Source: a virus
Taxonomy: Duplodnaviria; Heunggongvirae; Uroviricota; Caudoviricetes
DNA: 10,524 nucleotides
Direction: 5' to 3' (one strand)
Virus record (IMG/VR): IMGVR_UViG_2541047695_000006
Both the position numbers and the translations under genes were made by a program. The notes beneath the pieces are model-generated. The model did no database searches and was not told the DNA's origin. It was given only the letters and a program-made list of their open reading frames with translations. The number at the start of each line of letters is the position of its first letter. The stretch's first letter is position 1. This document shows, one piece after another, positions 1 to 10,307 of the stretch.

Positions 1-1242
1 ATGGCACGAAAAACCACCCCACTAACTATTACGGAGATCAAAAACGCACGACCAGGGGAAAAGGAATATACCCTGCAGGATGGCGGAGGATTATTTCTTC
101 TGGTGAAGCCCTCCGGATCAAAAATCTGGCGTTTTACGTACTACCGTCCGGCAGATAAAAAACGGACTATTATCAGCCTTGGATCGCTAAATGATGTTTC
201 CCTGTCTGATGCCAGAGAGCGACGGAATGAATACAGGTCACTCATAGCAAAGGGAACTGACCCACAGGACTACGAACGCCGGAAACGTGAAGCAGAGAGC
301 AGGAAAAAGGGCAACACGTTCGAAAAAGTTGCCTTGGACTGGTACGAGATGAAAAAAGGCCAGAATCTGGCTTACAACACGATTAAGGATATCTGGCGAT
401 CCCTGGAAAAATACGTATTCCCGTACATCGGAAACACGCCAATAGATACCCTCACCGCTCGCCGCTTTGTTGAGATACTCACACCCATTAAAGCACGCGG
501 CAACCTGGAAACTCTGAAACGCGTTTTACAACGCATCAATGAAGTGATGGATTTTGCTGCCAACAGTGGGCTGATTGACATCAACACCGCCGCGAACGTC
601 CGCAAGGCATTCCCTTCCCCCACTAAAAAGCATATGCCAACCATCCGACCGGAACAGCTACCGCAGCTAATGCACGATTTATCGGTCGCCAGCATAGAAC
701 GGCAAACCAGATTGCTAATCGAGTGGCAACTGCTGACCGTAGCACGCCCAGCCGAAGCAGCCGCCGCACGCTGGGAAGAAATAGATCTCGATGCCGAAAC
801 ATGGACGATTCCAGCCGGACGCATGAAGATGCGCCGTGACCATGTGATCCCTCTTTGCGGTCAGGCGATGGCTGTACTGGAAACAATGAAGCCAATCAGC
901 GCACACAGGGAACATGTTTTTCCCAGCCTTAAAAATCCAATGCTGCCAATGAGCAGCCAGACCGCTAACGCTGCATTGCGCCGGATGGGATACGCTGGTG
1001 TGCTGGTGTCTCACGGATTACGCGCCATATTCAGTACAGCAGCGAACGAGGAAGGATTCGAGCCGGACGTAATCGAGGCCGCACTCGCACACGTGGACAC
1101 GAACGAGGTAAGGCGAGCATATAACCGAAGTAACTACCTGGAAAAACGTGTAGTACTTATGCGCTGGTGGGGTGAATTTGTGGAAGCCGCAGCAACCGGA
1201 GTGACCATAGCCAGTGGTAAAAGGGGTATCCGTGCGGTGTAA
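1..1242 (+). CDS. int: Tyrosine recombinase / site-specific integrase, P4-like family
   Basis: 413-aa ORF. N-terminal arm-binding-type domain (LTITEIKNARPGEKEYTLQDGGGLFLLVKPSGSKIWRFTY), C-terminal catalytic region with HGLRAIFST and a Tyr in RRAYNRSNY. The ATG sits exactly at the window start, so the upstream RBS is not visible. Confidence 0.9.
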   Translation: MARKTTPLTITEIKNARPGEKEYTLQDGGGLFLLVKPSGSKIWRFTYYRPADKKRTIISLGSLNDVSLSDARERRNEYRSLIAKGTDPQDYERRKREAESRKKGNTFEKVALDWYEMKKGQNLAYNTIKDIWRSLEKYVFPYIGNTPIDTLTARRFVEILTPIKARGNLETLKRVLQRINEVMDFAANSGLIDINTAANVRKAFPSPTKKHMPTIRPEQLPQLMHDLSVASIERQTRLLIEWQLLTVARPAEAAAARWEEIDLDAETWTIPAGRMKMRRDHVIPLCGQAMAVLETMKPISAHREHVFPSLKNPMLPMSSQTANAALRRMGYAGVLVSHGLRAIFSTAANEEGFEPDVIEAALAHVDTNEVRRAYNRSNYLEKRVVLMRWWGEFVEAAATGVTIASGKRGIRAV

Positions 1243-1767: not shown

Positions 1768-1974
1768 ATGGAAGTAATCAGAAAAATTCTTACCCGTCAG
1801 GAAGTAAAAAATATTCTGCGCATCAAGGCAGACAGTTCGCTACAGGACATGATCAACGCCGGAAAATTCCCGAAAGGCTTCAAAATCGGTCTGCGCCGTG
1901 TTGGCTGGTATGAAGATGAGGTGCAGGCCTGGTTGAAAGAACGCGAGGAAGAAGCGCGCGGAACGGCTGCGTAA
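1768..1974 (+). CDS. alpA: AlpA-family phage transcriptional regulator (HTH, excisionase-like)
   Basis: 68-aa ORF with the AlpA-type motif LTRQEVKNILRIKADSSLQDMINAGKFPKGFKIGLRRVGWYEDEVQAWL. GAGGT RBS about 9 nt upstream. Confidence 0.85.
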   Translation: MEVIRKILTRQEVKNILRIKADSSLQDMINAGKFPKGFKIGLRRVGWYEDEVQAWLKEREEEARGTAA

Positions 1975-2232
1975 TGGTGTGAGGTGTAACGCAATGAACA
2001 TAACAAAAAGCGCCCCGTTGCCGGAGCGCCCTTGTGAACAATTAACCTGCTGCGAAAAAAATGGATCAGTGCAGGGGAATTATATCAACTGTGTGAAGAA
2101 GCGCCACTATTGCCGGATAACAGGCAAAGAAAAGGCCACCAGTCACGGTAGCCCTGCGACACAAATTTCGCGTTATCCCCAACGCATGAGCATCGCCAAC
2201 AATGCCACATTTGCGGCTGGTGGGCAATGCAA

Positions 2233-2421
2233 TCAGTCTGGTTCAGTTCGTTGCCATACCTGCAATGAGCGCTTTTCCCTGTACTCTTTAAGGAATTGCT
2301 CAAGGGCAAAAGCACATGGCGCGAATCTTTCTGATTCATGCTCTATCTTTCTGCGCCGTCTTTTCCGTGCCGGTGATAATGTTTTGGTCAATTCTTTATC
2401 GGTCATTGTGTTGTCCTGCAT
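2233..2421 (-). CDS. Hypothetical small basic protein, possibly co-transcribed with the RHH gene
   Basis: 62-aa ORF in the track, immediately downstream (minus strand) of the RHH ORF. No domain recognised and RBS is weak. Confidence 0.2.
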   Translation of the reverse strand: MQDNTMTDKELTKTLSPARKRRRRKIEHESERFAPCAFALEQFLKEYREKRSLQVWQRTEPD

Positions 2422-2463
2422 AGCAATGCGCCGTAATACCTTACACCACGGCGCTGATGGTGA

Positions 2464-2643
2464 TTACTCTGGTTCTTTGGCCTTGCGCCGCTGGCGATAT
2501 TCAACTTCTCGTTTTAATGCCGCAGTAACAAATTGCCCCGTACTTTCGCCAGGCATTTTTACCGCCTCAACATTGTTCATAACTTCATGCGGAACCCTTG
2601 CCGCAACGGTTTGTGATTTTGCGTTTACCGCTTTTGTCGCCAT
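2464..2643 (-). CDS. Small ribbon-helix-helix-like DNA-binding protein (59 aa), candidate repressor; not in the ORF track because it is under 60 aa
   Basis: Translated by hand: MATKAVNAKSQTVAARVPHEVMNNVEAVKMPGESTGQFVTAALKREVEYRQRRKAKEPE. GAGGGG RBS 8 nt upstream. Divergent from the rightward operon and directly facing three palindromic operators. Confidence 0.5.
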   Translation of the reverse strand: MATKAVNAKSQTVAARVPHEVMNNVEAVKMPGESTGQFVTAALKREVEYRQRRKAKEPE

Positions 2644-2693
2644 GTGGTGTACCCCTCATAAAAAACAAATGCAGTATGCAGGAAAAAAAATAA

Positions 2694-2745
2694 GTGTTCA
2701 ACACTTGACGTGTTTAACACCTGGGTTTAAATTGGTGTTCAACAC
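2694..2745. promoter_or_regulatory. Divergent promoter/operator region with three 11-bp palindromes GTGTT(C/T)AACAC
   Basis: Palindromes at 2694-2704, 2710-2720 and 2735-2745. A sigma70-like -35 TTGACG (2705-2710) and -10 TTAAAT (2728-2733) with 17-bp spacer point rightward and are interleaved with the palindromes. Confidence 0.5.
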
Positions 2746-2842
2746 CTTGTTGGCGCAAGGTGCAGAAACGACGAAACCCGGCAGTGCGCTAACACTAACC
2801 GGGCTTCTAACCACCAACGATAGCGAAAGTATCGAGGTAGCT

Positions 2843-3049
2843 ATGAGAAATCATACCACACACCCGCAAGGGCGGGACTCGCACAACCTGAATAAATACA
2901 TCTGGCGTTTTATCGCCCTGAGCACGGCACAACCGCGCGTGATTACCATTGAGGCCACCAGCGAACAGGAAGCGCGTCAGCAATCTCCTGATGGCTGCGT
3001 GATGGTATTCGCTGCCCGTATTCGCCAGGGGGAAACCTATGCACAATAA
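2843..3049 (+). CDS. Small protein (68 aa), first gene of the rightward operon; tentatively Icd-like
   Basis: In-frame C-terminal part of the 1979..3049 ORF, preceded by GAGGT RBS. Sequence MRNHTTHPQGRDSHNLNKYIWRFIALSTAQPRVITIEATSEQEARQQ... The family call is from memory and tentative. Confidence 0.55.
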   Translation: MRNHTTHPQGRDSHNLNKYIWRFIALSTAQPRVITIEATSEQEARQQSPDGCVMVFAARIRQGETYAQ

Positions 3050-3500: not shown

Positions 3501-3788
3501 ATGAAACAGAAAATTTCTGGCTTTACTGCCAGCGGCCCCGCTCGGCCTGAAATCCGCCCCGGCGATATTTTCCGGGATAACTATGGCGGCACGGTAACGA
3601 TAAAAGGCGTGGCAGAACGGCGCATCACTTACCGCCGTGATGGCTACGAATATGACTGCGTGATGCCTGTTTATCAGTTCCGGCGTGATTTCACGCTGGT
3701 GGGCCATCGTAAAGCCGTAAATCAGAAACGTGCAGCAAGTCATATCCGCAAAATTCGTGAAATGCTGGTCGCAGGGGGTAAAAAATGA
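3501..3788 (+). CDS. Hypothetical protein (95 aa)
   Basis: ORF in the track. Its stop overlaps the rep start in an ATGA arrangement. Confidence 0.5.
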   Translation: MKQKISGFTASGPARPEIRPGDIFRDNYGGTVTIKGVAERRITYRRDGYEYDCVMPVYQFRRDFTLVGHRKAVNQKRAASHIRKIREMLVAGGKK

Positions 3789-5191
3789 AACTGGCACCGA
3801 ACGTAAAACTGTTACCGAAAGATAAACACACTGAGGCGGTTATTTTTGCGGGTGATAATGCTCACTCCTTTGCAGAACATTACATGATTGCACAGGCCAA
3901 AAAAGCAGGCGATCCCATCCCTCCGGTTTACCTGGGCCGTTATCAGTTAAGCGAACTGGACAACCTGCAGATTGTTGATGAGGGGCGATACAGGGTAACG
4001 GTGATACGCGCCGGAAATATTGACGAAGCGCAGCTGTTAACCATAGCGACAAAACTGGCGATCGCCGGAGTCCAGGAAGCGCGGCTGCTTTCTGAAAACT
4101 TCGAATTACTGGAGAAATGGACCGACCAGCTTCCACGGCTACGGGAGACATGGGAGAGAGGGGAAAGCCTGATCATGAACGGAGGAAAACAAAAAATCAC
4201 GCTACCGATTTCATGGGGTTCTGAGGGATTCGACGCGCAGCAAAGCTACGTAATTAAGGGGCTTATTCCGGCTGAATCATTATGCAGCACCTACGGGGCC
4301 AGCGGTTCTTATAAATCGTTCCTGGCTATTTCCTGGTCGTGCCATGTTGCCACAGGTATGGCATGGGGAGGCCGCAGGGTAAGTAAGGGCGCGGTTATCT
4401 ATATCGCTGGCGAAGGCAGTATGGGCGTAAAACGCCGCGTTAAGGCGTGGGAGATAACCCACGACAAGGTGGTTACGGATTTGTGCATCGTTAACGCGCC
4501 TGTCTTCCCTGCATCGCCTGACTATGTGGAGCAGGTTATCAGGACCGCCGGATTAGTGCAGGACAGAACGGGCGAAAGGGTGCGGATGATTGTCATTGAC
4601 ACGCTGGCCCGTTGCTTTGGTGGTCATGATGAAAATGACTCCCGCGACATGGGGGCGTTTATCCAGGGGTGTGACGCGATAAAGCAGGCCACGGGGGCCA
4701 CGGTTCTGGTTGTGCATCATTCCGGCAAGGATGAGACGAAAGGGGCGCGGGGTTCCAGTGCATTCCGTGCGGCGCTTGATGCTGAGTTCCGAATCAGTCG
4801 GGAACATTCAGAGGCTACGGCGCTGGTTGCAGCATGTACGAAGATGAAGGACGCGGAGGAGCCAAAAGAAAGCGCCTACGACCTTAAGAGCGTGGAGGTA
4901 TTTACGGATCCTGAGGGTGAAGAAATCGTGTCCATGGTGGTGATTGACGTTCCCCGCGCCCCTGCTGAACTGGAGCGCATAGAGGAGGCCGGGAACAAGA
5001 CGGAAAATCACACGGCTTTATGGGGTTGTATCCGGTCACGTATACAGCATGGTGATAAATGCACGATCCCGCTGCTACGTGATGACATGAAAAAGCTGGG
5101 ATATGACACAAAACACCTTAAACGATGGTTAGCCAAACTGGAAAAAGACGGCGTGATTTGCGTCGATGGGGATGATGTTCACCCACTGTAA
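3785..5191 (+). CDS. Replication initiator / helicase-like protein (RecA/DnaB-like ATPase, PICI pri-rep-like)
   Basis: 468-aa ORF with a P-loop-like GASGSYKS, a Walker-B-like MIVIDTLARCF and VLVVHHSGKDETKGARGSSAF. AGGGGGT RBS. Directly followed by an iteron array. Confidence 0.8.
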   Translation: MKLAPNVKLLPKDKHTEAVIFAGDNAHSFAEHYMIAQAKKAGDPIPPVYLGRYQLSELDNLQIVDEGRYRVTVIRAGNIDEAQLLTIATKLAIAGVQEARLLSENFELLEKWTDQLPRLRETWERGESLIMNGGKQKITLPISWGSEGFDAQQSYVIKGLIPAESLCSTYGASGSYKSFLAISWSCHVATGMAWGGRRVSKGAVIYIAGEGSMGVKRRVKAWEITHDKVVTDLCIVNAPVFPASPDYVEQVIRTAGLVQDRTGERVRMIVIDTLARCFGGHDENDSRDMGAFIQGCDAIKQATGATVLVVHHSGKDETKGARGSSAFRAALDAEFRISREHSEATALVAACTKMKDAEEPKESAYDLKSVEVFTDPEGEEIVSMVVIDVPRAPAELERIEEAGNKTENHTALWGCIRSRIQHGDKCTIPLLRDDMKKLGYDTKHLKRWLAKLEKDGVICVDGDDVHPL

Positions 5192-5393: not shown

Positions 5394-5645
5394 ATGACCA
5401 GAAAAACCAGAGATAAGACAGCACCAAAATATCGCGCATTAGACATGACAGAGCACGCCTTAAAGGTGGCAATCAGAACGATAGACCGCCACGCCGGAGA
5501 AGGATACGCGAAAGCACATCCCGAACTGATAAGCGCATTCATGACCACGACGGCGGCAAATTTTGCCACGCTGACAGAGCGGGAGATTGCCGAAGCGGAA
5601 CAGGTAACAACAATCAACGTTAAAACCGGAGAGGTGGAATCATGA
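5394..5645 (+). CDS. Hypothetical protein (83 aa; track ORF 5262..5645 probably over-extended into the iterons)
   Basis: In-frame ATG at 5394 with an AGGTGG RBS. Stop overlaps the ssb start (ATGA). Confidence 0.45.
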   Translation: MTRKTRDKTAPKYRALDMTEHALKVAIRTIDRHAGEGYAKAHPELISAFMTTTAANFATLTEREIAEAEQVTTINVKTGEVES

Positions 5646-6064
5646 CAGCACAGATAGCGGCTTACGGGCGGCTGGTGGCTGACCCGCAGTTAAAGACCAC
5701 TAGCAAAGGGACACAAATGGCGATGGCGAGTATGGCGGTTCCCCTGCCGTGCAGCCAGGCAGATGACGGAACGGCGACGATGTGGTTATCTGTCCTGGCG
5801 TTTGGCAGACAGGCCGACGCACTGGCAAAACACCACAAAGGCGAACTCCTGAGCGTGGCGGGTAACATGCAGGTGAGCCAGTGGACAGGCCAGAACGGCA
5901 AAACGCGGCAGGGCTGGCAGGTTATCGCAGATAGTGTAATCAGTGCCAGAACGGCGCGACCGGGCGGCAAAAAAGGTCAACAGGGCCAGGCCACTGACGC
6001 ATTGAACAGGGCAAAACAACAGTCAGGGAATGATGAACCGTACGGCGATAATATACCGTTTTAA
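5642..6064 (+). CDS. ssb: Single-stranded DNA-binding protein (SSB) homologue
   Basis: 140-aa ORF. OB-fold-like segments align by eye with E. coli SSB (LVADPQL; WLSVLAFGRQADALAKHHKGELLSVAGNMQVSQWTGQNGKTRQGWQV), and it has the acidic C-terminal tip ending DNIPF (compare DDDIPF). Confidence 0.75.
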   Translation: MTAQIAAYGRLVADPQLKTTSKGTQMAMASMAVPLPCSQADDGTATMWLSVLAFGRQADALAKHHKGELLSVAGNMQVSQWTGQNGKTRQGWQVIADSVISARTARPGGKKGQQGQATDALNRAKQQSGNDEPYGDNIPF

Positions 6065-6080
6065 ATTCTGCAAACAAAAA

Positions 6081-6109
6081 ATGCCGGAAAAAAATAGATT
6101 TTCCGGCAT
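6081..6109 (-). terminator. Perfect 11-bp-stem hairpin; canonical intrinsic terminator only in minus orientation
   Basis: ATGCCGGAAAA-aaataga-TTTTCCGGCAT. On the minus strand it is followed by TTTTTTGTTTG; on the plus strand no U-tract follows. Confidence 0.4.
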
Positions 6110-6280
6110 GCTACATAAATCCCGACCAAAGGAAGTAAATACATTAACACGAATTATCAGCACTGAAGTTGTCACGGCAGATTTTATACAACATTGCACT
6201 TGGTTGCATGTATTCGCATAGCAGACATCGGTAATAGAATATATTCACAATTATTTGTAATGAATGTAAAGAGGATGAGT

Positions 6281-7321
6281 ATGGTTGATTTATATTCGCC
6301 TACACAGCTTGTGCAGGTGGCTAATGCTGAAGATGTGCAAAAAAAACTAAATGCGTTGTTTACCAGTTTGTTTTTCACTCGCTCGGTAATGTTTGAATCG
6401 AGAGACATTATTCTTGATACGATCGACGATCCAAATATCCCGATCGCGGCGTTTTGCTCTCCTATGGTGGGCAGTAAAGTTTCACGAGATGAGGGATACG
6501 AATCAAAAACAATTCGCCCAGGCTATATGAAACCGAAAAGCAGTATTGATCCAAATAAGTTAGCTGTGCGCCCTGCTGGTGTATCACCTGAACAATACAA
6601 TGCTTTTGGAGCGCGTAATATTAAAGTTAAACAGGCGATTGTAAATCAGGCTAAAGCTATACGTGCACGTATTGAATGGCTTGCTGTTCAGGCAATCACA
6701 ACGGGGAAAAATATCATTGAGGGCGATGGTATTGAACGTTATGAACTGGACTGGAATATAAAACCACAAAATATTATCACGCAGTCTGGCGGTGCTGAGT
6801 GGTCAGGTAAGGATAAAGAAACTTTTGATCCAAATGATGATATTGAGAGCTACGCAGAATTTAGTGAGGGCGTCACTAATATCATCATTATGGGCGGTAA
6901 TGTATGGAAGAAATACCGTTCATTCAGAGCGATAAAAGAGGCTCTGGATACCCGTCGTGGTTCTAATTCCGAACTGGAAACGGCCCTTAAAGACCTTGGT
7001 GATTCGGTGAGTTTTAAAGGGTATATGGGCGATGTTGCGATTGTTGTTTACAGCGGACGTTATACCGACGAGGACGGAACTGAAAAACATTTCCTTGATC
7101 CTGATTTGATGGTGCTTGGCAATACGGCTCTTCAGGGGATTGTCGCCTATGGCGGTATTCAGGATCCGGAGCTAATCCGAATGGGGCTGACTAAAGCCGA
7201 ACTTGCACCGAAAAACTATATTGTGCCTGGTGATCCGGCTATTGAGTACATACAAACGCACTCTGCACCACAGCCAATACCGGCCCGCATCAATCGTTTT
7301 GTTACCGTTCGCATTGGCTAA
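6281..7321 (+). CDS. Major capsid protein, lambda gpE-like family
   Basis: Collinear similarity to lambda gpE, for example NIITQSGGAEWSGKDKETFDPNDDIESYA and DTRRGSNSELETALKDLGDSVSFKGYMGDVAIVVYSGRY. AGAGG RBS at 6-nt spacing. An alternative start at 6275 (MSM...) matches the lambda N-terminus. Confidence 0.9.
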   Translation: MVDLYSPTQLVQVANAEDVQKKLNALFTSLFFTRSVMFESRDIILDTIDDPNIPIAAFCSPMVGSKVSRDEGYESKTIRPGYMKPKSSIDPNKLAVRPAGVSPEQYNAFGARNIKVKQAIVNQAKAIRARIEWLAVQAITTGKNIIEGDGIERYELDWNIKPQNIITQSGGAEWSGKDKETFDPNDDIESYAEFSEGVTNIIIMGGNVWKKYRSFRAIKEALDTRRGSNSELETALKDLGDSVSFKGYMGDVAIVVYSGRYTDEDGTEKHFLDPDLMVLGNTALQGIVAYGGIQDPELIRMGLTKAELAPKNYIVPGDPAIEYIQTHSAPQPIPARINRFVTVRIG

Positions 7322-7330
7322 GGGGGAGCA

Positions 7331-7672
7331 ATGGCTACTCATTACACTGAACTCATGTCTGGTACTGAAGCACTGGTTACTACGCTGGGGATATTTTCAG
7401 CCAATAAAGGGGTAATACCTGCGTTTACGCCACTGATGCAGGAAGATGCAACTGGTGCGCTAGTGGTATGGGATGGAACGAGCGCAGGCAAAGCGGTTTA
7501 TGTTTCCGCTGTACAAATCGACACAGCGAAAAAAACACAGGCACAGGTTTATAAGACAGGTGTTTTAAATGTTGATGCTCTGAACTGGCCTGAGTCTGTA
7601 AGAGAACTGTCGGCAAAGGTTGCCGCGTTTGTTGGCTCAGGTATTTCTGTTCAGCCGCTGGCTCGTGTGTAA
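7331..7672 (+). CDS. Head decoration protein, lambda gpD-like
   Basis: 113-aa ORF with gpD-like motifs PAFTPLM, VVWDGT, YKTGxxxxDALNWPE and AFVGSGISV. GGGGGAG RBS. Confidence 0.8.
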   Translation: MATHYTELMSGTEALVTTLGIFSANKGVIPAFTPLMQEDATGALVVWDGTSAGKAVYVSAVQIDTAKKTQAQVYKTGVLNVDALNWPESVRELSAKVAAFVGSGISVQPLARV

Positions 7673-7683
7673 AGGGGGATACA

Positions 7684-8067
7684 ATGCAGAATCATTACAA
7701 TGACCTTAAGCCAATTGCCGAAATGATGTATCCGGATCCAGCAGTAGAGGAATTAAAGGCTATTGCTGACAAAATGCGTTTAAGTGAACGCCTTGTTGAT
7801 ATGAATCAGGTGATGGAACTTACTACCCTTAGCCGTCGCACATTGCTAAACCTTGAGGCTCGTGGAGAGTTCCCCGAACGCGTACAGGTTACGGAAGGGC
7901 GTAAGGCCTGGTATTTAAGTGAAGTGATCGACTGGATAAACAATATTCCTCGAGCTTCTGAATATTGCCGCGTACCTGTCCCCAAAAAGCCAGATGCGGC
8001 GCTATGCCTCAAGATTGAGCGTGTACGTCGCAATGCACGGGATGGTCGCTATAAGTTGATTGGTTGA
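7684..8067 (+). CDS. AlpA/MerR-like HTH DNA-binding protein (127 aa) immediately upstream of cos
   Basis: HTH segment LTTLSRRTLLNLEARGEFPERVQVTEGRKAWYLSEVIDWINN. AGGGGGA RBS. About 40 N-terminal residues have no recognisable signature. Confidence 0.65.
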   Translation: MQNHYNDLKPIAEMMYPDPAVEELKAIADKMRLSERLVDMNQVMELTTLSRRTLLNLEARGEFPERVQVTEGRKAWYLSEVIDWINNIPRASEYCRVPVPKKPDAALCLKIERVRRNARDGRYKLIG

Positions 8068-8120: not shown

Positions 8121-8241
8121 ACGGGGCGGCGACCTTGCGGATTTTCGCTATTTATGAGCCTTTTCGGGTTGGTGGTGGTGGTTTTGTTTTTCGCTCTATC
8201 TCTATGAATAAAAAGGGAAAGATAACACCAACACACCAACC
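8121..8241 (+). other. Lambda-like cohesive end site: cosN (12-nt cohesive-end sequence at 8124-8135) plus cosB-like repeats
   Basis: GGGCGGCGACCT at 8124-8135 and the following about 35 nt closely match the lambda left-end sequence as recalled. Downstream are GGTTGGTGGTGGTGG (8167-8181), an A/T-rich tract, and a tandem ACACCAAC x2 (8225-8240) in inverted orientation, ending about 30 bp before the Nu1-like start. Confidence 0.7.
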
Positions 8242-8268
8242 TGAAACCTTAACTAAGTGGGGATATTG

Positions 8269-8811
8269 ATGAAATCGCACCTGATGAACAAAAAAACTAT
8301 GGCGCAAAGCTGCCGCGTAAGTGCGACAGCGTTCGACAAGTGGGGAGTAACTCCCGTTGAGCGTAAAGGCCGTGAGGCGTTTTATGATGTTGCTAGCGTG
8401 ATAGACAATAGGGTTAACAATGCAATTAACCAGCTTACAAACGACAAAGGCGAGATTGATGATGATGAACTTTTACGCGTAAGAATCAGATTAATGACGG
8501 CCCAGGCGGAAGCGCAGGAACTTAAAAACGAGCGCGAACGCGGCGAGGTGATTGATACAAAGTTTTGCATCTACGCGATTTCAAAACTAGCGAGTCAGAT
8601 TTCATCAATCATGGACAGCCTCCCGCTCACAATGCAAAGGCGCTTTCCCGATATAAGGCCGTATATGCTGGATGAACTAAAAAGGGAAATAGCCAAAGCA
8701 TGTAACGCATGTGCAAGACTTGACGAAAACCTGCCACAGATACTGGCTGATTACCTGATGGAAACTACCGGAAACGCGCCTGAGAAGTTGCTACAGAACA
8801 AAGGCGAGTAA
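8269..8811 (+). CDS. Terminase small subunit, lambda Nu1-like
   Basis: About 180 aa, collinear with lambda Nu1: N-terminal winged-HTH region (NKK...FYDVASVI) and TAQAEAQELKNERERGEVIDTKFCIYAISKLASQISSIMDSLPLTMQRRFPD. The start at 8269 has a GGGGA RBS; the track ORF begins at an upstream GTG (8257). Confidence 0.85.
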   Translation: MKSHLMNKKTMAQSCRVSATAFDKWGVTPVERKGREAFYDVASVIDNRVNNAINQLTNDKGEIDDDELLRVRIRLMTAQAEAQELKNERERGEVIDTKFCIYAISKLASQISSIMDSLPLTMQRRFPDIRPYMLDELKREIAKACNACARLDENLPQILADYLMETTGNAPEKLLQNKGE

Positions 8812-10090: not shown

Positions 10091-10280
10091 TCTGTGATCA
10101 TCCACCAGCTTGATGACAGATAACAGGGAGTCATAACGATTAAAATTGTATATTTTTGCAGCAAACATTTTTAGCTACACGCTAAGCTATACGATTTTGA
10201 GTTTAAATTTTTTGTATTCAATTAAATCAAATGGTTATATGCACGTTTTGAATACTCTCGTGGACCAAAAATCCCAAGAA

Positions 10281-10307
10281 AACCAACCTATTGCGGTTGG
10301 TTTTTTT
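10281..10307 (+). terminator. Rho-independent terminator, strongest in plus orientation and possibly bidirectional
   Basis: AACCAACC-tattgc-GGTTGGTT followed by T7. Lies about 60 nt beyond the stop of the minus-strand edge ORF. Confidence 0.5.

Follow-up and report, generated by a model that had tools for sequence, protein, structure and literature searches.

A predicted minus-facing intrinsic terminator and a probable small RNA gene between the ssb and capsid genes of an EcCICFT073-type phage satellite

In the papers searched here, the control of phage-inducible chromosomal islands (PICIs) in Escherichia coli is ascribed to proteins only, namely the AlpA activator and the redirection of packaging by Rpp, and neither a terminator nor an antisense RNA nor a small RNA (sRNA) is mentioned (PMC6092414, PMC6739421). 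The present analysis concerns a hairpin at positions 6081-6109 of a 10,524-nt stretch of viral DNA (IMG/VR record IMGVR_UViG_2541047695_000006; the whole stretch is referred to here as the window), which is situated between ssb and a major capsid gene. Judged from its sequence, the window is a Gram-negative PICI of the EcCICFT073 type, that is, an E. coli phage satellite, an assignment based on the match of its gene order to the published one (PMC6092414, PMC6739421). With EcCICFT073, the prototype of the Gram-negative PICIs, it has in common the series int, alpA, Icd-like gene, DUF4222 gene, replicase, ssb, gpE-like capsid, gpD-like decoration protein, and winged-helix gene, while the prototype differs in its type of packaging module and in carrying an extra small open reading frame (ORF) and a perC-like gene (PMC6092414, PMC6739421). 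The hairpin probably ends an unannotated, non-coding sRNA gene on the minus strand, a reading drawn from sequence comparison, to which we give a probability of about 0.6.

In phage lambda, the OOP RNA (77 nt) is transcribed leftward from its own promoter, stops at an intrinsic terminator, and is antisense to the 3' end of cII. The RNA predicted here resembles OOP in being short, in having its own promoter and a Rho-independent terminator, in running against a long operon of a lambdoid-type element, and in its complementarity to the 3' transcript region of the upstream gene. In contrast to OOP, which overlaps coding sequence, it would reach only the 3' untranslated region (UTR) of ssb and the read-through RNA, and the two show no sequence similarity. 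Among satellites, the only sRNA found in our literature search is SviR of the Vibrio cholerae satellite PLE, whose targets are experimental (bioRxiv 10.1101/2022.04.08.487710). SviR is likewise a small RNA encoded by a satellite and sets a precedent for the tuning of satellite and helper genes by an sRNA; however, it belongs to a different satellite family and host, a homology between the two RNAs would not be expected, and its experimental targets stand against none predicted above chance in our case.

Several sRNAs of the accessory genome, namely Esr41, AgvB, AsxR, and PasA-D, are also similar to the candidate in that they combine a 3' stem-loop and poly-U with a single-stranded seed and are patchily distributed among E. 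coli (PMC5286369, bioRxiv 10.64898/2026.05.13.724894). The locus could not be assigned to any of these. Esr41 lies in SpLE1 and is included in Rfam (RF02676), where the window locus has no match; AgvB, AsxR, and STnc100 are included there as well, with no match to the unit under study. All four types of Pas sRNA (PasA-D) hit INPHARED phage genomes, whereas positions 6065-6285 gave no blastn match among 50,697 phage records. When Rfam release 15 was searched with the window, nothing was found at 6070-6150 even at E<=1, and nine diverged loci gave nothing at the gathering threshold except tRNAs.

The hairpin, its polarity, and its distribution

The perfect 11-bp inverted repeat described in the initial annotation was confirmed by sequence, folding, and shuffles (Table 1). 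Five of the 11 pairs are G-C, and the hairpin alone folds at -14.5 kcal/mol; within a 66-nt context, its folding z-scores against dinucleotide shuffles were -3.45 (minus strand) and -3.63 (plus strand), none of the 200 shuffles being as stable. We defined a strict terminator as a perfect stem of >=9 bp with >=4 GC pairs and >=5 T within the next 8 nt. Two sites in the window conform to this definition, compared with a mean of 0.023 in shuffles, of which 1.7% have any. The other site, AAACCAACC-tattgc-GGTTGGTTT followed by TTTTATAT at 10280-10303 (+), faces rightward near the right end of the window, where the island or a flanking host gene possibly ends.

On the plus strand, the hairpin is flanked by CAAACAAAAA on its left and GCTACATAAATC on its right, and the latter contains no U run, exactly as had been noted from the letters alone. 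The minus-strand U-tract reported with it is likewise present, with the small correction that the run past the stem is composed of five U, a G, and three U, six U being reached only when the last stem base is counted. On that strand, the stem and loop agree with the definition of such terminators (a G+C-containing stem of >=5 bp with a loop of 3-8 nt), a U-rich tract directly follows the stem, and a promoter is predicted upstream. By these defining sequence features the hairpin is an intrinsic (Rho-independent) terminator in the minus orientation, with predicted activity. For the plus-strand ssb operon it does not qualify as an intrinsic terminator, since the downstream GCTACATAAATC has no U-rich tract, and no other plus-strand terminator-like site was detected within 6064-6281. 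Additionally, the RefSeq annotation of a 99.2%-identical copy holds no feature between ssb and the capsid gene, in agreement with the earlier remark that nothing annotated is transcribed on the minus strand at this place.

The element was followed into Kluyvera, Superficieibacter, and Kosakonia by means of the capsid protein, and a search with the upstream motif TTTATACA-N2-ATTGCA-N5-TTGCA provided 172 usable viral and metagenomic loci, corresponding to 92 unique upstream regions. In nearly all loci, the dominant hairpin was situated 73-99 nt to the left of the conserved motif. Its stem sequence varied by lineage, from GCCGGAAAA../..TTTTCCGGC in E. coli to AGCGGGC../..GCCCGCT and AGGCGGGC../..GCCCGCCT in others, and the hairpins found at this position in Kluyvera, Kosakonia, Superficieibacter, and metagenomic lineages are unrelated in sequence. 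The gene to the left of the hairpin also changes between lineages. Because the position is kept while both the sequence and the left-hand gene differ, it is the hairpin structure that constitutes the conserved property.

Regarding the flanking runs, all of the approximately 70 unique E. coli variants have a plus-strand A-run of 6-8 upstream and no T-run downstream (T0). The geometries recorded on the plus strand were A6-8/T0, A8/T0, A6/T3, ~A10/T2, A5/T5, A4-5/T4, and A3/T3, plus two with almost none; the upstream A-run was always equal to or longer than the downstream T-run, and no lineage was plus-only. Bidirectional intrinsic terminators are composed of an A-run, a hairpin, and a T-run, a form matched by lineages D and D2 (A5/T4-5) and by the second hairpin of EcCICFT073 (A7/T4). 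In contrast, the window possesses the A-run alone, and its hairpin, like that of lineage C, is unidirectional and minus-facing since the T-run on the plus side is entirely absent. For comparison, EcCICFT073 was located in the CFT073 chromosome (L280). Both in this island and in that of E. coli IHE3034 (tandem hairpins at L003 6180-6420), the upstream gene has its own plus-facing terminator, after which a second hairpin is found with A6-7 upstream versus T4 downstream, ~75-78 nt before the ATTGC promoter motif. The loop of this second hairpin in EcCICFT073 reads CCACCUCUGAC on the minus strand and is C/U-rich. Considered with the survey of A- and T-runs, the second hairpins of IHE3034 and EcCICFT073 indicate that a terminator facing leftward, or also leftward, recurs where the packaging control region begins on its left side.

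The ssb gene is common to many E. coli islands, whose similarity to the window ends exactly at the ssb stop codon; in IHE3034, for example, what comes after ssb is a plus-facing terminator of the ordinary kind and then another control region. As homology with other PICI types breaks at this stop codon, the hairpin belongs to the control module on the capsid side and not to ssb. It is unchanged where a primase takes the place of the RepA helicase as replicase. Of 5426 complete E. coli genomes, 366 contain the 221 bp between the ssb stop and the capsid ATG as a unit, the identities of the copies falling into two bands (95-100% and ~86%). Over 5900-6400, E. coli 504239 (NZ_CP025859.1) matches the window at 100%, while the region of E110019 (NZ_CP035751.1) is 99% identical; the island is also carried by ETEC strains such as TW11681. 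In one genome, E. coli SCU-102 (NZ_CP051753.1; L008 90-830), a copy of IS200C is inserted exactly in the A-run beside the hairpin, that is, in the U-tract of the minus-strand terminator, and one stem arm carries a disrupting change from CCGGC to CCTGC. The putative RNA unit appears to be inactivated in this copy; alternatively, IS200 may target A/T runs beside hairpins.

A conserved promoter signature and the predicted RNA

A minus-facing terminator requires a promoter on the minus strand. In a position-weight scan of both strands in 12 lineages, a -10-like hexamer on the minus strand was found at a constant position, forming part of an extended -10 element, TG-T-TAATGT in the window. In every surveyed lineage, the minus strand carries TGnTA[A/T]nnT (TGnTAWnnT) 41-42 nt downstream of TGTATAAA and ~32 nt upstream of the hairpin. 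E. coli type B has TG-T-TAATAT, and the hexamers of the others are TATCGT, TATGGT, TATTGT, TATGCT, and TATCAT. When 14 representatives were anchored at the -10, the only invariant columns in the 82-nt span were the TG, T-12, A-11, and T-7, and the -10 columns that vary are those tolerated by sigma-70. Without this anchoring, the sole invariant feature of the spacer was the TTGCA/TTTATACA motif. Each spacer contains essentially one TGnTAWnnT match (chance ~0.001 per position), three lineages having one extra, and in 59 unique E. coli variants the extended -10 varies at position -8 only. Most lineages have TTCA-type hexamers 15-16 nt upstream of the -10 (TTCACC, TTCACA, TTCAGA, TTCACT, TTGAAT), and in lineages C-F a G is situated 7-8 nt past the -10 hexamer, the normal place of a start site. 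Only once in the window, at the present locus, is TGnTAWnnT followed on its own strand by a perfect-stem terminator, and the combination was absent from 200 dinucleotide shuffles.

Transcription from this element would begin at ~6136-6133. Such a start lies upstream of both the capsid promoter and the capsid ATG (~145 nt from the latter), and the RNA would consequently not be antisense to the capsid 5' end. The initial annotation had suggested that the hairpin could terminate a small minus-strand RNA starting near that end. The termination of such an RNA is supported by the conserved extended -10 some 32 nt upstream and by the minus-biased polarity across independent lineages, whereas the place of the start has to be revised. 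A long antisense RNA from within the capsid gene was rejected as the main source, the sole promoter-like site there (6645->6618) not being conserved outside E. coli. A binding site for IHF in place of the -10 was also discarded: the conserved block TA[A/T/G]CA (plus strand) varies at a base required by IHF and fits less well than TGnTAWnnT.

The RNA predicted in the window would extend from 6136-6133 to ~6076-6072 and consist of ACUUCCUUUGGUCGGGAUUUAUGUAGC, the 29-nt hairpin, and UUUUUGUUUG, with a length of ~60-65 nt. A C/U-rich single-stranded part followed by a terminator hairpin and a U-tail is the usual build of base-pairing sRNAs, and the pairing of an own promoter with a poly-U terminator, one of the features of Hfq-type sRNAs, is predicted here from conserved signals. 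Among the 59 unique E. coli variants, 85% of the columns of the 27-nt RNA body are invariant, with one common single-nucleotide polymorphism at 6133; this conservation equals the level of the nearby operator-like repeats and exceeds that of the neighbouring spacer. In other genera, the predicted RNAs are ~80 nt long: a 5' stem-loop (SL1) that begins at the predicted +1, and whose loop is C/U-rich (UCCUCC), is joined to the terminator by an A/U-rich linker. SL1 shows compensatory changes at three stacked pairs (GUUAU/AUAAC, GUUAC/GUAAC, GUCGC/GCGAC). In five sequences it contains U.G pairs where the plus strand would have C.A mismatches; this strand test leans to the strand used for defining the helices. 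Paired cells amounted to 88%, compared to 33-58% in slid controls, and a covariance model built from the other genera recovered all members on the expected strand, including one untrained lineage (E = 1e-5). Of the possible seed in the 5' part, only the C/U-rich character is common to the genera (CUUCCUUU, UUUCCUCC, ACUCCUGA). What the genera share, as far as the sequences indicate, is the layout, i.e., the promoter position, the C/U-rich 5' part, and the terminator; the RNA body is not demonstrably homologous.

No conserved ORF was read in the spacer on either strand. A plus-strand Shine-Dalgarno (SD)-like sequence, AAAGGAAG, precedes only a 7-codon frame started by ATT with non-synonymous variation, and a small ORF was therefore rejected; ORFs of 63 and 58 aa cross the hairpin and were rejected as genes.

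In the proposed arrangement, the RNA gene would sit inside an EcCICFT073-type PICI, with the replication module (ending in ssb) on one side and the packaging operon on the other. Its transcription would start from the extended -10 sigma-70 promoter TGTTAATGT, directed away from the capsid promoter, and would stop in the U-tract, giving an RNA with a single-stranded C/U-rich 5' part, an A/U-rich stretch, the terminator hairpin, and a U-tail. Since the plus strand has no U-tract, early ssb transcripts should read through the hairpin, and the small RNA would be fully complementary to this read-through RNA and to the ssb 3' UTR. An overlap with read-through RNA is thus expected from the absence of a plus-strand terminator, and it would be limited to that RNA and the 3' UTR, as the predicted 3' end falls ~7-10 nt short of the ssb stop codon (6064). 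The RNA could act in trans, on G-rich SD sites, or in cis, as antisense to the read-through.

No target rose above shuffled controls, whether it was sought in the initiation regions of the island, on its whole plus strand, among the orthologous genes of 12 lineages, or in 45 initiation regions of lambda. Within the 14 initiation regions of the window, the best duplex reached -21.1 kcal/mol, a value equalled by 28% of shuffled RNAs, and the capsid initiation region was among the weakest partners (-9.5 kcal/mol). The earlier suggestion of a regulator of capsid expression accordingly finds no support in pairing. Across the 12 lineages, the decoration and HTH2 genes, which have G-rich SDs (AAGGGGGAG, AAAGGGGGAU, UGAGGAG), pair better than the capsid gene; this pairing is not specific, as any anti-SD-like sequence would show it. 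None of the lambda initiation regions stands out (P = 0.55 and 0.28). As a separate observation, unusually G-rich SD regions are found in orf3039, repA, decoration, and HTH2 (3020-3039, 3765-3785, 7312-7331, and 7665-7684, with CAGGGGGAAA, CAGGGGGTAA, TAAGGGGGAG, and TAAAGGGGGAT, respectively), while that of the capsid gene differs (AAAGAGGATG). These shared SDs may reflect a common translational control.

Island genes and the neighbouring control region

All large ORFs of the window are on the plus strand, and their identities were taken from Pfam and from the RefSeq annotation of the 99.2%-identical copy (Table 1). The capsid protein shows 54.7% identity to that of the IHE3034 island, a close relative of EcCICFT073.

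Table 1. Coordinates of the hairpin, the predicted RNA and promoter elements, the island genes, and the compared hairpins of EcCICFT073.
Feature	Position	Strand	Details
Tyrosine integrase	1-1242	+	Pfam/RefSeq
AlpA	1768-1974	+	Pfam/RefSeq
DUF4222 protein	3501-3788	+	Pfam/RefSeq
AAA_25/RepA-type helicase	3785-5191	+	Pfam/RefSeq
ssb	5642-6064	+	Pfam SSB; last gene of the replication module; stop codon 16 nt from the hairpin
Terminator U-tract	6071-6080	-	Minus TTTTTGTTTG (6080->6071) straight after the stem; plus CAAACAAAAA; predicted RNA 3' end ~6076-6072
Terminator hairpin	6081-6109	-	Perfect 11-bp stem, 7-nt loop; plus strand ATGCCGGAAAA-AAATAGA-TTTTCCGGCAT
RNA 5' body, predicted single-stranded	6110-6136	-	5'-ACUUCCUUUGGUCGGGAUUUAUGUAGC-3'; C/U-rich anti-SD-like 5' motif, A/U-rich stretch before the terminator
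Extended -10, TG-T-TAATGT (TGTTAATGT)	6149->6141 (hexamer 6146->6141)	-	Predicted start ~6136-6133
Weak -35-like TTCAGT	6162-6167	-	15-nt spacer to the -10; read from the sequence
Second, weaker promoter candidate, ATGCAA-17-TAAAAT	hexamer 6186->6181	-	Shares positions with the conserved motif; its longer RNA (~100 nt) would keep the same 3' end
Conserved control motif, TTTATACA-N2-ATTGCAC-N4-TTGCAT	6183-6209	+	Operator/activator-site-like repeats; 89% invariant in E. coli
Packaging-operon promoter-like site, TTCGCA-16-TAGAAT	6213-6240	+	Most other lineages have TG before the -10 TAnnAT
Lambda gpE-type major capsid homolog	6281-7321	+	ATG at 6281; packaging operon
gpD-type decoration protein	7331-7672	+	Pfam/RefSeq
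Second AlpA-like HTH protein (HTH2)	7684-8067	+	Pfam/RefSeq
Nu1-type small terminase	8257-8811	+	Pfam/RefSeq
EcCICFT073 first hairpin	L280 20230-20297 (pair)	+ facing	AGCCGGA-gcaa-TCCGGCT + TTTTTG
EcCICFT073 second hairpin	L280 20230-20297 (pair)		GCCCGATAAG-gtcagaggtgg-CTTATCGGGC; A7 upstream, T4 downstream

In the control motif, the unit TTGCA(C/T) is repeated two to three times and is conserved across genera, while its flanks diverge. Situated between the two putative divergent promoters, the motif resembles a site at which an activator or repressor of packaging genes might bind. A sharing of TTGCAC with the alpA promoter was considered and rejected, the motif not being enriched elsewhere in the window (33 matches versus 43 expected).

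Other parts of the window and its relatives also drew attention. A long imperfect inverted repeat (~33 pairs) occupies 8161-8247 in the gap just upstream of the small-terminase gene, where a microRNA precursor was spuriously matched on either strand (E=0.007 and 0.24), well short of the gathering score; this repeat is a candidate packaging (cos-related) or regulatory site. The ~1 kb past alpA (1979-3039) has no convincing plus-strand ORF and contains minus-facing terminator-like sites at 2033->2006 and 2155->2132, together with short minus-strand ORFs, one of which, at 59 aa, has the size of the YlcI/YnfO genes annotated in relatives. Within the same region, 2770-2842 (-) gave a weak SymR-antitoxin-like match in Rfam (33 bits versus a gathering score of 61, E=0.003), and the segment may hold further small genes or RNAs. 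In E. coli DS26-1 (L002 1-1189 and 10343-12527), the island is flanked on one side by an ISCro1 transposase and on the other by a lambdoid head-tail region that is truncated and has a partial major capsid gene, FI, and head-tail joining and tail genes, from which it follows that this satellite lies inside or beside a prophage remnant. In the islands of Kluyvera (L009 8057-8129) and Superficieibacter (L010 8166-8238), a minus-strand tRNA gene found ~3 kb rightward of the capsid gene probably serves as the right-hand attachment site.

Alternative explanations and significance of the locus

Several results weigh against an sRNA gene at this locus. The -35 hexamer is weak (TTCAGT, with a 15-nt spacer), and the window has no purine at the canonical +1. 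In EcCICFT073, whose control region holds tandem terminators, no recognisable TGnTAWnnT was seen by eye at the matching place between the second hairpin and the ATTGC motif, whereas the window has this element. The U-tract is nearly absent in two lineages (L010 and L138), and it is conceivable that a protein binds the DNA at the invariant TG.TA...T. Neither in the island nor in lambda did any target beat the shuffled controls. The covariance model of the other genera does not detect the window RNA or those of L003 and L001; as it misses the E. coli version, no homology is claimed for the RNA body across genera. Formal covariation is weak, with two pairs showing double-sided changes and a score of 0.090 versus 0.074 in shuffles. 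Finally, RNAalifold recovers the terminator helix alone and does so on both strands (-14.1 vs -11.2 kcal/mol), so the strand is not decided by this measure.

Part of this evidence would suit a directional insulator that has no functional RNA, blocks leftward leakage of spurious transcription, divergent or antisense, from the AT-rich packaging control region into ssb and the replication genes, allows plus-strand read-through, and leaves any transcript as a by-product. Insulation of the replication module from antisense read-through had also been offered in the initial annotation, and it is kept here as an alternative, although we consider it unlikely. The minus-biased polarity across lineages, the inclusion of the hairpin in the capsid-side control module, and the retention of a minus-favoured hairpin beside a plus terminator in EcCICFT073 and IHE3034 agree with it, as do the lack of a significant target and of homology between the RNA bodies of E. 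coli and other genera. However, the conservation of the RNA body is less well explained by an insulator: it leaves unaccounted for the purifying selection on a promoter signature of fixed position, the 27-nt body, one of the best-conserved non-coding segments in E. coli, and the maintenance of SL1 with its C/U-rich loop by compensatory changes in other genera. Quite improbable, in our estimation, is a function on the plus strand, at the 3' end of the ssb or early-operon mRNA, where the stem would serve as a weak terminator, an exonuclease barrier stabilising the 3' end, or a processing site and the minus-strand U-tract would be incidental. It is true that the hairpin lies 16 nt past the ssb stop and, in other lineages, after the stop of the preceding plus-strand gene, that the stem folds equally well on the plus strand, that 3-5 T are found downstream in some lineages, and that the change in the E. 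coli variant L004 makes a G.U pair on the plus strand and C.A on the minus. Nevertheless, most lineages have no plus U-tract, the A-run is conserved, and none is plus-only; moreover, the hairpin is not part of the ssb module by homology, and a second, minus-favoured hairpin persists where a true plus terminator exists.

A role at the level of DNA seems very improbable, whether as a binding site for a protein, a cruciform, a signal for single-strand initiation or an origin, a site related to packaging, or a hotspot for recombination or insertion where modules join. The location at a mosaic junction, the adjoining replication genes, and the IS200C insertion exactly in the A-run of one genome are compatible with such an element. 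Against this, the stem sequence diverges between lineages while the structure and the tract are kept, which argues for an RNA hairpin rather than a sequence-specific DNA site, and the hairpin stays the same despite the change of replicase from RepA helicase to primase. Furthermore, published PICI origins sit elsewhere, directly 3' of the replication initiator gene (PMC6092414). That the palindrome arose by chance, or is a leftover from the terminator of a lost minus-strand gene with no present function, is hardly credible: such a view agrees with the absence of an annotated minus-strand gene, but the expectation is 0.023 sites per window, the hairpin is kept in 366 genomes with different hairpins at the same place in other genera, and it is coupled to a conserved promoter signature.

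The preferred reading, an sRNA gene ended by the hairpin, can be extended to a functional proposal that we advance only tentatively. The locus would be a conserved and previously unnoticed sRNA gene in EcCICFT073-type PICIs of Enterobacteriaceae, divergent from the packaging promoter. Its 5' anti-SD mimic might repress packaging genes with G-rich SDs and/or helper or host mRNAs, or the RNA might act as antisense in the cleavage of early read-through RNA, thereby timing the switch from replication to packaging or aiding interference with the helper. Were the RNA not made, the finding would amount to an ordinary directional terminator at a module boundary. If it is real, an RNA unit of ~60-80 nt at the hinge between replication and packaging would account for the recurrent 'wrong'-way terminator after the last replication gene and would add to the conflict between satellite and helper an RNA layer of the kind so far shown only for the unrelated Vibrio PLE (SviR). 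It would be the first small RNA proposed for this satellite family and, if the proposal is true, the first riboregulator among PICIs.

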